Below, in pieces: positions 1 through 3,221 of a stretch of DNA of 3,221 nucleotides. A program made the translations under genes and the position numbers. Source of the DNA: Escherichia coli (lineage in GTDB: Bacteria; Pseudomonadota; Gammaproteobacteria; Enterobacterales; Enterobacteriaceae); NCBI RefSeq assembly GCF_003334255.1, contig NZ_QOWU01000126.1, one strand, 5' to 3'. Every line of letters begins with the position of its first letter. Position 1 is the first letter of the stretch. Below the pieces are notes generated by a model, which saw only the letters and a list, made by a program, of their open reading frames with translations, was not told where the DNA came from and searched no databases.

Positions 1-77
1 AGTTATCGTGAGAGTAATTCATCGGCACGTTAAATCATATCAGGCGTAATACCACAACCCTTAAGTTAGCGCTTATG
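1..77. mobile_element. Terminal 77 bp of an IS186-like insertion sequence (IS4 family), element truncated by the window start; terminus at position 77
   Basis: Reverse complement of 1..77 reads CATAAGCGCTAACTTAAGGGTTGTGGTATTACGCC..., which matches my recollection of the IS186 terminal inverted repeat and adjacent sequence. The flank immediately outside (78..90, GGATCACTCCCCG) is GC-rich, the kind of target IS186 prefers. Identification is from memory, not a search. Confidence 0.7.
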
Positions 78-99
78 GGATCACTCCCCGCCGTTGCTC

Positions 100-252
100 T
101 TACTCGGATTCGTAAGCCGTGAAAACAGCAACCTCCGTCTGGCCAGTTCGGATGTGAACCTCACAGAGGTCTTTTCTCGTTACCAGCGCCGCCACTACGG
201 CGGTGATACAGATGACGATCAGGGCGACAATCATCGCCTTATGCTGCTTCAT
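100..252 (-). CDS. hokC: HokC (Gef) type I toxin, 50 aa small membrane peptide of the Hok/Gef family
   Basis: The last 50 codons of the 100..342 minus-strand ORF translate to MKQHKAMIVALIVICITAVVAALVTRKDLCEVHIRTGQTEVAVFTAYESE, which I recognise as HokC/Gef: one hydrophobic transmembrane segment and a short polar tail. ATG is at 252..250 and stop TAA at 102..100 on the - strand. An AGGAGA Shine-Dalgarno lies 8-13 nt upstream (revcomp of about 258..268). Confidence 0.9.
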   Translation of the reverse strand: MKQHKAMIVALIVICITAVVAALVTRKDLCEVHIRTGQTEVAVFTAYESE

Positions 253-309
253 TGCTCTCTTCTCCTTGACCTTACGGTCAGTAAGAGGCACTCTACATGT
301 GTTCAGCAT
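100..309 (-). CDS. mokC: MokC, 69 aa overlapping reading frame (modulator of killing) whose translation is coupled to hokC
   Basis: In-frame ATG at 309..307 extends the hokC frame N-terminally (MLNTCRVPLTDRKVKEKRA + HokC), with GAGG about 9 nt upstream. The ORF track's 80 aa version starts at a further upstream GTG (342), which I do not favour. The nested mok/hok arrangement is the established architecture of hok/sok loci. Confidence 0.8.
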   Translation of the reverse strand: MLNTCRVPLTDRKVKEKRAMKQHKAMIVALIVICITAVVAALVTRKDLCEVHIRTGQTEVAVFTAYESE

Positions 310-355
310 ATAGGAGGCCTCGGGTTGATGGTAAAATATCACTCGGGGCTTTTCT
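301..355 (+). ncRNA. sokC: SokC antisense RNA (antitoxin of the hok/sok type I system); ends approximate
   Basis: Lies antisense to the mokC translation initiation region (mokC ATG at 307..309, SD at about 319..322). A hairpin with stem 317..324 paired to 342..349 (8 bp including two G-U pairs in RNA) is followed by TTTTCT at 350..355, an intrinsic-terminator-like 3' end. The 5' end near 301 is from recall of the locus, not derived from the sequence. A TTGACC -35-like hexamer is at 266..271 but I could not find a convincing -10. Confidence 0.55.
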
Positions 356-408
356 CTATCTGCCGTTCAGCTAATGCCTGAGACAGACAGCCTCAAGCAC
401 CCGCCGCT

Positions 409-414
409 ATTATA
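409..414 (-). promoter_or_regulatory. Candidate -10 hexamer (TATAAT on - strand) for the mokC/hokC mRNA
   Basis: Revcomp of 409..414 is a perfect TATAAT, about 95 nt upstream of the mokC ATG and about 150 nt upstream of the hokC ATG, consistent with the long structured leader typical of hok mRNAs. No good -35 match at 16-18 bp spacing. Positional inference only. Confidence 0.3.
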
Positions 415-534
415 TCGCTCTCTTTAACCCATTTTGTTTTATCGATTCTAATCCTGAAGACGCCTCGCATTTTTGTGGCGTAATTTTTTAATGATTTAAT
501 TATTTAACTTTAATTTATCTCTTCATCGCAATTA

Positions 535-563
535 TTGACGACAAGCTGGATTATTTTTGAAAT
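535..563 (+). promoter_or_regulatory. Candidate sigma70-type promoter (TTGACG -35 at 535..540, 17 bp spacer, TGAAAT -10 at 558..563) in the AT-rich nhaA upstream region
   Basis: Hexamer match and spacing read directly from the sequence. nhaA is known to have two promoters (P1 NhaR/Na+-dependent, P2 stationary-phase), but I cannot assign which this is, if either. Confidence 0.25.
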
Positions 564-760
564 ATTGGCCTAACAAGCATCGCCGACTGACAACAAATTA
601 ATTATTACTTTTCCTAATTAATCCCTCAGGAATCCTCACCTTAAGCTATGATTATCTAGGCTTAGGGTCACTCGTGAGCGCTTACAGCCGTCAAAAACGC
701 ATCTCACCGCTGATGGCGCAAATTCTTCAATAGCTCGTAAAAAACGAATTATTCCTACAC

Positions 761-766
761 TATAAT
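761..766 (+). promoter_or_regulatory. Candidate -10 hexamer (perfect TATAAT) about 72 bp upstream of the nhaA start
   Basis: TATAAT at 761..766; the sequence 17 bp upstream (TAAAAA at 738..743) is a poor -35. Could be one of the two known nhaA promoters; not resolved from sequence. Confidence 0.3.
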
Positions 767-771
767 CTGAT

Positions 772-799
772 TTTAACGATGATTCGTGCGGGGTAAAAT
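772..799 (+). promoter_or_regulatory. Second candidate nhaA-proximal promoter (TTTAAC -35-like at 772..777, 16 bp spacer, TAAAAT -10 at 794..799)
   Basis: Hexamers read from the sequence; the predicted start would be about 30 nt upstream of the GTG. Weak -35. Listed as an alternative to the 761..766 element. Confidence 0.25.
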
Positions 800-823
800 A
801 GTAAAAACGATCTATTCACCTGA

Positions 824-829
824 AAGAGA
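824..829 (+). promoter_or_regulatory. Ribosome-binding site of nhaA (AAGAGA)
   Basis: Purine-rich AAGAGA sits 8 nt upstream of the GTG at 838. Confidence 0.5.
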
Positions 830-837
830 AATAAAAA

Positions 838-2004
838 GTGAAACATCTGCATCGATTCTTTAGCAGTGATGCCTCGGGAGGCATTATTCTTATCATTGCC
901 GCTATCCTGGCGATGATTATGGCCAACAGCGGCGCAACCAGTGGATGGTATCACGACTTTCTGGAGACGCCGGTTCAGCTCCGGGTTGGTTCACTCGAAA
1001 TCAACAAAAACATGCTGTTATGGATAAATGACGCGCTGATGGCGGTATTTTTCCTGTTAGTCGGTCTGGAAGTTAAACGTGAACTGATGCAAGGATCGCT
1101 AGCCAGCTTACGCCAGGCCGCATTTCCAGTTATCGCCGCTATTGGTGGGATGATTGTGCCGGCATTACTCTATCTGGCTTTTAACTATGCCGATCCGATT
1201 ACCCGCGAAGGGTGGGCGATCCCGGCGGCTACTGACATTGCTTTTGCACTTGGTGTACTGGCGCTGTTGGGAAGTCGTGTTCCGTTAGCGCTGAAGATCT
1301 TTTTGATGGCTCTGGCTATTATCGACGATCTTGGGGCCATCATTATCATCGCATTGTTCTACACTAATGACTTATCGATGGCCTCTCTTGGCGTCGCGGC
1401 TGTAGCAATTGCGGTACTCGCGGTATTGAATCTGTGTGGTGCACGCCGCACGGGCGTCTATATTCTTGTTGGCGTGGTGTTGTGGACTGCGGTGTTGAAA
1501 TCGGGGGTTCACGCAACTCTGGCGGGGGTAATTGTCGGCTTCTTTATTCCTTTGAAAGAGAAGCATGGGCGTTCTCCAGCGAAGCGACTGGAGCATGTGT
1601 TGCACCCGTGGGTGGCGTATCTGATTTTGCCGCTGTTTGCATTTGCTAATGCTGGCGTTTCACTGCAAGGCGTCACGCTGGATGGCTTGACCTCCATTCT
1701 GCCATTGGGGATCATCGCTGGCTTGCTGATTGGCAAACCGCTGGGGATTAGTCTGTTCTGCTGGTTGGCGCTGCGTTTGAAACTGGCGCATCTGCCTGAG
1801 GGAACGACTTATCAGCAAATTATGGTGGTGGGGATCCTGTGCGGTATCGGTTTTACTATGTCTATCTTTATTGCCAGCCTGGCCTTTGGTAGCGTAGATC
1901 CAGAACTGATTAACTGGGCGAAACTCGGTATCCTGGTCGGTTCTATCTCTTCGGCGGTAATTGGATACAGCTGGTTACGCGTTCGTTTGCGTCCATCAGT
2001 TTGA
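838..2004 (+). CDS. nhaA: Na+/H+ antiporter NhaA (388 aa, 12-TM secondary transporter), GTG start
   Basis: ORF 838..2004 translates to [41 protein letters not shown]..., which I recognise as E. coli NhaA essentially residue for residue. The protein is highly hydrophobic, and the conserved Asp163-Asp164 pair (IIDDLG, codons GAC GAT at 1324..1329) of the ion-binding site is intact. Stop TGA at 2002..2004. Confidence 0.97.
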
Positions 2005-2018
2005 CAGGACGGTTTACC

Positions 2019-2046
2019 GGGGAGCCATAAACGGCTCCCTTTTCAT
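2019..2046 (+). terminator. Intrinsic-terminator-like hairpin between nhaA and nhaR (probably partial, allowing read-through)
   Basis: GGGAGCC at 2020..2026 pairs perfectly with GGCTCCC at 2033..2039 (7 bp GC-rich stem, 6 nt loop ATAAAC), followed by TTTTCATTGTT from 2040. It starts 15 nt after the nhaA stop and ends before the nhaR SD. The short, interrupted T-tract suggests incomplete termination. Confidence 0.45.
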
Positions 2047-2052
2047 TGTTAT

Positions 2053-2060
2053 CAGGGAGA
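2053..2060 (+). promoter_or_regulatory. Ribosome-binding site of nhaR (AGGGAGA)
   Basis: Strong SD-like AGGGAGAGA ends 3-5 nt before the ATG at 2064. This supports ATG 2064 as the start rather than the TTG at 2046 used by the ORF track. Confidence 0.55.
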
Positions 2061-2063
2061 GAA

Positions 2064-2969
2064 ATGAGCATGTCTCATATCAATTACAACCACTTGTATT
2101 ACTTCTGGCATGTCTATAAAGAAGGTTCCGTGGTTGGCGCAGCGGAGGCGCTTTATTTAACTCCACAAACCATTACCGGACAGATTCGAGCGCTGGAAGA
2201 GCGCCTGCAAGGCAAATTATTTAAACGCAAGGGACGTGGTCTCGAACCCAGCGAGCTGGGAGAACTGGTCTATCGCTATGCCGATAAAATGTTCACCTTA
2301 AGCCAGGAAATGCTGGATATTGTGAACTATCGCAAAGAATCCAATTTATTGTTTGACGTTGGCGTGGCTGATGCACTTTCCAAACGCCTGGTCAGTAGCG
2401 TACTTAACGCCGCAGTGGTAGAAGGCGAGCCCATTCATCTTCGCTGCTTCGAATCCACCCACGAAATGCTGCTGGAGCAATTAAGTCAGCATAAACTGGA
2501 TATGATCATTTCTGACTGTCCGATAGACTCTACGCAGCAGGAAGGCCTGTTCTCCGTGAGAATTGGCGAATGTGGCGTGAGTTTCTGGTGTACAAATCCA
2601 CCACCAGAAAAACCGTTCCCGGCTTGTCTGGAAGAACGGCGACTTTTGATTCCTGGGCGACGTTCAATGTTAGGGCGCAAATTGCTTAACTGGTTTAACT
2701 CCCAGGGATTAAACGTAGAAATCCTCGGCGAGTTTGATGATGCCGCTTTGATGAAAGCTTTTGGTGCGATGCACAATGCAATCTTCGTTGCCCCAACGCT
2801 TTATGCATATGACTTTTATGCCGATAAAACTGTCGTAGAAATTGGTCGCGTCGAGAATGTGATGGAAGAGTACCATGCTATTTTTGCTGAGCGGATGATT
2901 CAGCACCCGGCGGTACAGCGAATCTGCAATACGGATTATTCTGCGCTTTTTAGTCCAGCGGTGCGTTAA
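2064..2969 (+). CDS. nhaR: LysR-type transcriptional activator NhaR (301 aa), Na+-responsive regulator of nhaA
   Basis: From ATG 2064 the frame translates to [53 protein letters not shown]..., which I recognise as E. coli NhaR. It has an N-terminal helix-turn-helix typical of LysR-type regulators and a C-terminal co-inducer domain. Stop TAA at 2967..2969. The ORF track's TTG start at 2046 adds 6 residues and overlaps the upstream hairpin, so I reject it. Confidence 0.96.
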
Positions 2970-2976
2970 TCGGCAG

Positions 2977-3001
2977 CTCCCCCAAAGTTAAGGTGGGGGA
3001 G
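2977..3001. other. GC-rich hairpin immediately downstream of the nhaR stop (no U-tract)
   Basis: CTCCCCCA at 2977..2984 pairs with TGGGGGAG at 2994..3001 (8 bp stem, 9 nt loop). No T-run follows on either strand, so it is not a canonical intrinsic terminator; it could be an RNA stability element or a rho-dependent termination region. Confidence 0.3.
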
Positions 3002-3144
3002 ATAGATTAGTTGTACATTACCACGATTTTGACTCGGCTCATTATTTGCCCGCTTGAGACATTGTTTCCATATGTACGCGGGCGAATAAATAGAGGAATC
3101 TGATTACTTCCTTCATGGGGATGCTGAAAAGAGTAGTAATTGCT

Positions 3145-3221
3145 GGTAATGACTCCAACTTATTGATAGTGTTTTATGTTCAGATAATGCCCGATGACTT
3201 TGTCATGCAGCTCCACCGATT
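3145..3221. mobile_element. IS1 terminus (terminal inverted repeat GGTAATGACTCCAACTTATTGAT and adjacent sequence), element truncated by the window end
   Basis: 3145..3167 matches my recollection of the IS1 terminal inverted repeat. The following sequence encodes the InsB C-terminus on the - strand (see next feature). The putative 9 bp target flank just outside the element is 3136..3144 (GTAATTGCT). Confidence 0.85.
3160..3221 (-). CDS. insB: IS1 transposase InsB, C-terminal fragment (partial, continues beyond the window)
   Basis: Minus-strand translation of 3219..3163 gives ...SVELHDKVIGHYLNIKHYQ followed by stop TAA (revcomp of 3160..3162), which matches the InsB C-terminus as I recall it. 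The ORF track did not list it because it is truncated at the window edge. Confidence 0.85.
   Translation of the reverse strand, partial: SVELHDKVIGHYLNIKHYQ

Follow-up and report, generated by a model that had tools for sequence, protein, structure and literature searches.

Deletions of adjacent DNA promoted by IS1 belong to classical IS1 genetics, and SaiSree et al. reportedly described, in 2001, hot-spot insertion of IS186 at GGGG(N6/N7)CCCC, for example in the lon promoter. The published IS186 target is this same motif, used in either orientation (PMC5009759), with the consensus drawn also from PMC3045373, and sites such as the lon promoter are hot spots for the element (Lee et al. 2016, PMC5009759). 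In Escherichia coli K-12, the hok loci are described as inactivated by IS elements, and the fbi element of gef/hokC in particular as disrupted by IS186; for the K-12 IS186A/hokC junction we draw on Pedersen and Gerdes 1999, as cited in PMC7232551, and on PMC3562002.

Layout of the window and its place in the chromosome

The window, the whole 3,221-nucleotide stretch analysed here, holds hokC/mokC/sokC, nhaA and nhaR between an IS186 terminus and an IS1 terminus (Table 1). Each terminus is 100% identical to annotated copies, and positions 55..3221 match MG1655 16706..19872 at 100% identity. In genomes carrying neither IS186 nor IS1 here, alignment to the window is confined to 77..3144. The genes enclosed by the two ends occupy their usual chromosomal place in the dnaJ-rpsT interval. 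An E. coli hokC-nhaA-nhaR region with unrelated IS ends is well known and ordinary, an instance of known IS biology in a well-annotated region.

Table 1. Features of the window, with strand and supporting annotation.
Feature	Position	Strand	Remarks
IS186 left (transposase-proximal) end	1..77	-	reverse complement of 1..80 = MG1655 IS186A 15387..15466, annotated start
insL start codon	22..20	-	MNYSHDN...
IS186 terminal inverted repeat	55..77	-	23 bp CATAAGCGCTAACTTAAGGGTTG, exact reverse complement, ends at 77
IS186 target-site duplication, proximal copy	78..87	.	GGATCACTCC, 10 bp; alternative reading 6 bp core ATCACT at 80..85
hokC (gef) toxin ORF, 50 aa	100..252	-	ORF list; MG1655 hokC 16751..16903; identical to MG1655
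mokC, overlapping frame	extends to 309	-	MG1655 mokC 16751..16960
sokC antisense RNA gene	301..359	+	MG1655 sokC 16952..17010
nhaA, Na+/H+ antiporter, intact	838..2004	+	388 aa ORF; MG1655 annotation
nhaR, LysR-type activator, intact	2064..2969	+	MG1655 18715..19620
fimbrial-family gene 3' remnant, IS1-truncated, 45 codons + stop (138 nt)	3007..3144	-	annotated "fimbrial family protein, incomplete, missing N-terminus"
IS1 right-end inverted repeat	3145..3221	-	identical to MG1655 IS1A 19796..19872, first 77 bases
insB last 20 codons + stop	3160..3221	-	within IS1 end

The first-pass annotation had read the two ends as termini of unrelated elements and hence not as a composite transposon. Both points hold: the ends match the annotated IS186A and IS1A ends exactly, IS186 and IS1 belong to different families, and the cargo is flanked by one of each rather than by two copies of one IS. 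Joint mobilisation of the enclosed 3.1 kb by the two elements, for which the bracketing alone speaks, has a vanishingly small probability, given that the elements are unrelated, that either one is present at this locus alone in hundreds of genomes, and that the cargo genes lie in their normal dnaJ-rpsT position. Scanned against Rfam at E≤1, the window as a whole matched the sok family only; no other structured RNA therefore accounts for the ends.

The window is best read as the stretch between dnaJ and rpsT in a phylogroup-A-like E. coli that underwent two independent, mechanistically different IS events, the order of which we infer. Normal insertion of IS186 into the hokC 3' hairpin loop, together with IS1 as a deletion scar, is very probably the joint explanation.

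IS186 in the hokC 3' hairpin

The IS186 boundary may be drawn at 77, 79 or 80, because the palindromic target leaves two to three bases ambiguous; the MG1655 annotation would put it at window position 80. Strain 720632 contains the window in full; its IS186 is complete (1339 bp, with a minus-strand transposase CDS annotated) and corresponds exactly to MG1655 IS186A in reverse complement. A duplication at the far end of IS186, which the first-pass annotation proposed to look for, is present as the 10 bp GGATCACTCC in both L003 and L001. Strain 1500 has an empty site, gtggcGGGGATCACTCCCCgcc, which fits GGGG(N6)CCCC; the locus thus shows both the GGGG(N6/N7)CCCC motif, in the empty-site target sequence GGGGATCACTCCCC, and the direct duplication. 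The target is a GC-rich hairpin 22 bp 3' of the hokC stop codon, and the duplication copy in the window is half of this hairpin, split. IS186, a member of the IS4 family, has very probably inserted normally here into the hairpin loop at GGGG-ATCACT-CCCC, duplicating GGATCACTCC.

The closest counterpart is K-12 IS186A, which shares the site, the 10 bp duplication, the 1339 bp length and the 22 bp distance from the hokC stop, but lies in the opposite orientation: the insL-proximal end adjoins hokC in the window, whereas the distal end does so in K-12, so that hokC and the transposase gene are transcribed co-directionally in the window and in opposite directions in K-12. With hot spots such as the lon promoter the locus has in common the motif, a duplication containing the 6 bp core, and use in both orientations; the difference is that the target here is an RNA hairpin loop at the 3' end of a hok mRNA. 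A paralogous hok locus on a plasmid is struck at the corresponding position: an independent IS186 occupies its equivalent hairpin, GGGG(ATCTCT)CCCC.

Up to 940 genomes out of 5426 have the window-type IS186 junction, E. coli C and ATCC 8739 among them, and up to 831 have the K-12-type orientation; these and the other junction counts given here are maxima, as the search merges neighboring pieces and some of its matches lie in plasmid hok loci. Laboratory K-12 derivatives that were sampled have the MG1655 orientation. Window-type IS186 combined with the K-12-type IS1 junction accounts for at least 24 identical records and at least 38 full-length single-piece matches, and for fewer than about 173 in all; at least 24 isolates of wild origin (humans, poultry, ducks, vegetables and river water) carry the exact 3221 bp sequence. 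The earlier claim that the two insertions fix the background as K-12-like therefore fails, on account of the inverted IS186 and of these wild isolates, while the claim that the region is an insertion hotspot stands, with IS186 in both orientations at the hokC hairpin and IS1 at five or more sites of the neighbouring island.

Because IS186 is documented to reuse a single GGGG(N6)CCCC site in either orientation, independent insertion is to be expected as the origin of the two orientations. Alternatively, one ancestral copy could have flipped in place, or have been excised and re-inserted, between the K-12 and window states. The flanks of MG1655 and strain 720632 are identical over ∼7 kb, the two strains have the unique K-12-type IS1 junction and the same duplication in common, their IS186 copies are exact reverse complements, and no IS1-positive, IS186-negative genome appeared in the sampled ranks (about one row per 170 records). 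However, repeated use of one site in either orientation is documented, both orientations also occur on diverged backbones without IS1, and sampling at ∼170 records per row is coarse, so we regard a flip or re-insertion as unlikely and favor independent insertion. An imported divergent segment behind the orientation difference was ruled out because the flanks are identical over those ∼7 kb. More speculatively, and with quite a low probability, the conserved GC-rich 3' hairpin of hok mRNAs could be a dedicated landing pad at which IS186 cycles in and out, or flips, among near-identical strains. The orientation would then be of consequence: with IS186 placed as in the window, transcription from the hokC promoter enters the transposase gene in the sense direction, which would tie IS186 expression to a toxin-antitoxin promoter.

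The interrupted locus otherwise has the components of a hok system: a hok ORF, an overlapping mok frame and an antisense sok RNA, the last matching Rfam RF01794 (sok) at 250..402 (118 bits, E 1.3e-27). The hokC mRNA leader runs on the strand opposite sokC up to about position 402, where a tac-like 5' end, GGGUGCUUGAGG, begins. When folded, the empty-site hokC mRNA paired nt 1-12 with nt 352-364 and placed the IS186 target hairpin at nt 311-330; this fold is partly circular, because the 3' end of the mRNA was picked for its complementarity to the 5' end. A contiguous 3' fbi able to pair with the 5' tac is not found in the window, IS186 lying between the hokC ORF and the 3' segment; the insertion puts 1.34 kb between the fbi element and the hokC/mokC/sokC core. 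The first-pass term "TA remnant" is loose, since hokC, mokC and sokC are all intact in sequence; the loss concerns their connection to the 3' fold-back-inhibition (fbi) element. An effect on hokC function and regulation is predicted from the literature on these loci.

IS1 and the missing fimbrial island

The IS1 boundary between 3144 and 3145 is exact. The terminal inverted repeat is GGTAATGACTCCAACTTATTGAT, the element carries insA/insB and measures 768 bp in L001 and L003, and the match is not due to chance, because the same end recurs at ∼75,000 places in 5,294 genomes. As the earlier annotation stated, IS1 begins ∼175 bp downstream of nhaR (for which the strain 720632 annotation sets the start 6 nt later). 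Between nhaR and the fimbrial stub lies an inverted repeat (2977..3001), which a terminator scan did not flag. The stub's translation, SNYYSF...VVMYN*, matches the C-terminus of the full-length gene in strain 135. Compared with K-12 IS1A between nhaR and rpsT, both junctions and the orientation are the same; the IS1 copy of strain 720632 deviates at five internal positions, whereas the window's 77 bases are identical.

An IS1 insertion is expected to leave an 8-9 bp target-site duplication, and the first-pass annotation had proposed GTAATTGCT as a 9 bp candidate. This sequence is not repeated at the far end of the element, which reads TACCTCAAT instead, an outcome that the annotation had itself set down as indicating rearrangement rather than simple insertion. 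As a control, simple IS1 insertions in the same island do show duplications (ATCTCTTC in strain B, CTCAATGTG in strain J6). The default reading of two simple insertions into a K-12 chromosome, with GTAATTGCT as the IS1 duplication, gains from the complete identity of 55..3221 to MG1655 but is highly improbable; we consider it refuted by the TACCTCAAT far flank, by the 4-6.5 kb missing beside IS1, and by the inversion of IS186 relative to MG1655.

Between the sequences that flank IS1, strain 1500 has 4051 bp and strain 135 has 6506 bp, and these are the lengths of host DNA missing beside IS1 relative to the two IS-free strains. Other E. coli carry here, between nhaR and rpsT, an AT-rich island (37% G+C versus ∼50% for its neighbors) comprising a chaperone-usher fimbrial operon and espX1, of which at least five sites have been struck by IS1. 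The suggestion that IS1 had displaced the native 3' flank of nhaR is thus borne out, with ∼6.5 kb of the island replaced. A sister, HUE1-type lineage (up to 126 genomes) has the identical rpsT-side junction, IRL followed by TACCTCAATG, and differs from the K-12 type on the other side, where 89 bp more of the fimbrial gene are kept. One constant and one variable junction is the pattern of nested IS1-associated deletions. These junctions and endpoints, like the duplications and population counts, are direct observations; IS1 is very probably the scar of such a deletion, which removed most of the fimbrial operon, together with espX1, and left a 138 nt gene stub and an IS1 without target duplication. 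The likeness to classical IS1-promoted adjacent deletions extends to the position of IS1 at the deletion border, the missing duplication, and the fixed and variable junctions; the difference is that the parental simple insertion was not found. A synthetic junction of native sequence ending in TACCTCAAT with the IS1 end occurred in 0 of 5426 genomes, so we infer the deletion mechanism from its scars. The sole junction match, strain J6, was rejected as parental, being offset by 3 bp with its own duplication, and is an independent insertion; E. coli B was likewise rejected as the source of the K-12 IS1, its copy lying in espX1 in the opposite orientation with an 8 bp duplication.

The 6.5 kb could also have been lost if an IS1 at the TACCTCAAT anchor near rpsT had undergone homologous recombination with a second, directly repeated IS1 in the fimbrial gene, which would likewise leave a single IS1 without duplication. 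Island insertions in the orientation of the K-12 copy have arisen repeatedly, beside the anchor in J6 and inside the fimbrial gene in strain 042, and IS1 copies at this site differ by 4-9 SNPs between strains with identical flanks, which suggests exchange among IS1 copies. However, the K-12-type and HUE1-type left junctions, 89 bp apart, go with one common right junction, so recombination would need two separate second insertions and two recombinations. A nested series of adjacent deletions that start at one fixed end is the simpler account, and the two-IS1 intermediate was not seen. We thus hold recombination to be possible but the less probable route, and favor intramolecular IS1 transposition, which would have produced the nested deletions.

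Use for annotation and strain typing

These results leave current understanding of IS186, IS1 and hok/sok unchallenged and are chiefly useful for annotation and strain typing. Two cheap lineage markers tell laboratory K-12 and its wild relatives apart: how IS186 is oriented at hokC, and which exact IS1 junction is present (K-12-type or the +89 bp HUE1-type). That IS1 lacks its duplication explains, in turn, why K-12 is without the espX1 gene and the fimbrial operon found between nhaR and rpsT in other E. coli.

IS termini, gene content and strain background

The first-pass annotation read positions 1..77 of the window as an IS186 end and 3145..3221 as an IS1 end. Both match the annotated MG1655 copies: read on the opposite strand, window 1..80 is identical to the first 80 bases of IS186A, and IS1A opens with the 77 bases of window 3145..3221. 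Genomes without both elements align only over 77..3144, so the observation and its coordinates are confirmed. The last base of the 23 bp IS186 terminal inverted repeat lies at 77 and the MG1655 annotation puts the boundary at 80 instead; because the target is palindromic, this boundary is ambiguous by 2-3 bases.

Features of the window
Feature	Position	Strand	Source
hokC	100..252	minus	ORF list and MG1655 annotation
mokC	100..309	minus	ORF list and MG1655 annotation
sokC	301..359	plus	MG1655 annotation
nhaA	838..2004		
nhaR	2064..2969		
fimbrial-family gene remnant, last 45 codons	3007..3144	minus	annotation and comparison with strain 135

The only family found by an Rfam scan of the window was sok (RF01794; 250..402, 118 bits). 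This match is on the minus strand, the sense of the hokC/mokC mRNA leader and opposite to the sokC of MG1655, and the model seems to extend over the hok leader, not over the antisense RNA alone. In non-K-12 RefSeq records the 153 nt hokC ORF is named mokC and nhaR starts 6 nt downstream of its MG1655 start (window 2064..2070), both being annotation inconsistencies only. CFT073, O127:H6 and similar strains are homologous to the window only from about 592 onward, with nhaA-nhaR 89-93% identical, and within 1..~591 the whole hokC/sokC module gave no alignment at this position at megablast sensitivity.

The two insertions had been taken to fix a K-12-like background, a reading that we do not retain. 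By sequence comparison, MG1655 16706..19872 is identical (100%) to window 55..3221, and the match to sampled laboratory K-12 derivatives likewise begins at 55; at least 24 records carry the entire window at 100% identity, none of them labelled K-12, and at least 38 of 60 among the records listed match it full-length in a single piece. No more than 570 genomes have the K-12-type IS1 left junction, HUE1-type matches joined from two pieces being included, and 558 have the right junction. Between MG1655 and strain 720632, which contains the entire window, about 7 kb of flanking DNA is identical except for 5 SNPs within IS1 and a flipped IS186. Given flanks this alike, an inverted IS186 and K-12 matches that start only at 55, we conclude that the source of the window is a wild strain closely related to K-12, not K-12 itself.

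IS186 at the hokC 3' hairpin

IS186 has inserted here in the normal way at a hot spot, in the orientation opposite to that in K-12. Its hokC-adjoining end is transposase-distal in MG1655 (...GGTTCAACCCTTAAGTTAGCGCTTATG) and transposase-proximal in the window, where the insL start codon lies at 22..20; the 1339 bp element of strain 720632 is the exact reverse complement of IS186A. Position and flanking repeat, GGATCACTCC, are common to the two strains, and the far-end duplication anticipated by the first-pass annotation is thus present in strain 720632. The empty site of strain 1500 (gtggcGGGGATCACTCCCCgcc) fits the published target 5'-GGGG(N6/N7)CCCC-3' (PMC5009759), which is rare in the genome and repeatedly hit in either orientation (PMC5009759; PMC3045373). 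The opposite orientations at one shared position may reflect independent insertions or, less probably, a flip or re-insertion. Among 5426 complete genomes, 940 have the window-type junction (E. coli C and ATCC 8739 among them) and up to 831 the K-12-type one (K-12 derivatives and E. coli B belong to this group), the site being empty or the locus absent in the rest. An independent IS186 lies in a hok homologue of plasmid pDX6A (L011 739..2077), at the equivalent hairpin GGGG(ATCTCT)CCCC with duplication GGATCTCTCC. That homologue, annotated hokD, has an IS3-family element on the other side, and the transposase of its IS186 is interrupted by an internal stop.

The target is the loop of a hairpin with perfect pairing, GGCGGGGA GUGA UCCCCGCC; this hairpin starts 11 nt past the hokC stop codon, which is 22 bp from IS186. 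In the fold predicted for the 366 nt mRNA of the empty-site allele, the 5'-terminal 12 nt pair with nt 352-364, downstream of the hairpin (nt 311-330). The 3' end was picked by complementarity search, so the fold lends support but is not independent evidence. A tac/fbi fold-back is the established arrangement in hok mRNAs, and the predicted fold corresponds to it. In the window, hokC, mokC and sokC sequences are all intact, and 1.34 kb of IS186 separates the hokC ORF from the fbi-side 3' segment. This agrees with the published disruption of the gef/hokC fbi element by IS186 (PMC3562002) and with the inactivation of K-12 hok loci by IS elements, as stated in PMC7232551 (citing Pedersen and Gerdes 1999). 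Transcription of insL and hokC is co-directional in the window and convergent in K-12; any consequence of this is speculative.

Other elements also occur here. Some strains have IS150 inside the sokC/mokC leader (around window 323..327), among them LD27-1 (L006 828..2268), which also has the window-type IS186 and the IS1; NCTC10973 and 4/2-1 show the same pattern, but the K-12-type IS1 junction is missing from 4/2-1. All three have an IS element on either side of hokC. IS26 was seen in the region in one record among the matches listed.

IS1 as the scar of a deletion

The 9 bp preceding IS1 are GTAATTGCT and the 9 bp following it TACCTCAAT, both in MG1655 and in strain 720632; comparison of the flanks in these two genomes revealed no target duplication, contrary to the 9 bp repeat that had been proposed. 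We conclude that the duplication is missing because this IS1 is not a simple insertion and marks a deletion. A distance of 4051 bp separates its two flanks in strain 1500; in strain 135 the distance is 6506 bp, and the nhaR-rpsT interval there holds a fimbrial-family gene, usher, chaperone, fimbrial subunit and espX1. This fimbrial island has a G+C content of 37%, against about 50% in neighbouring genes, consistent with the reported preference of IS1 for AT-rich DNA (PMC5009759).

In the HUE1-type lineage (L007/L008; up to 126 genomes), IS1 has the same orientation and an rpsT-side junction, IRL/TACCTCAATG, identical to the K-12-type, and at its left junction the retained part of the fimbrial gene is 89 bp longer than at window 3144/3145. 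A constant rpsT-side junction with a variable fimbrial-side junction is what characterises nested deletions associated with IS1. A junction search of 5426 genomes did not find the presumed parental insertion at TACCTCAAT, and recombination between two IS1 copies, instead of intramolecular transposition, therefore stays a live alternative for how the deletions arose. Simple insertions do occur in the island: E. coli B (ATCC 11303) has one in espX1 in the opposite orientation, with duplication ATCTCTTC (8 bp), and J6 (L012 9099..9866) has an independent one 3 bp from the K-12 rpsT-side junction in the same orientation, with duplication CTCAATGTG (9 bp) and with espX1 and the fimbrial genes kept. 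Duplications are absent in 042, where IS1 lies in the fimbrial gene and about 50 bp are deleted, and in SY3626, where IS1 accompanies a 5.36 kb deletion. IS1 copies in comparison loci L001, L003, L008 and L012 share chromosomal junctions and carry 4-9 internal differences despite identical flanking DNA, which suggests within-genome sequence exchange among IS1 copies.

The first-pass interpretation, set aside as to K-12 strain and IS1 duplication, holds in other respects: the window, flanked by IS186 and IS1, is not a composite transposon, the region is an insertion hotspot, with its IS186 target used repeatedly and multiple independent IS1 events in the island, and the native 3' flank of nhaR has been displaced. 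Because all of these elements and mechanisms are already well known, we regard the finding as an ordinary one.
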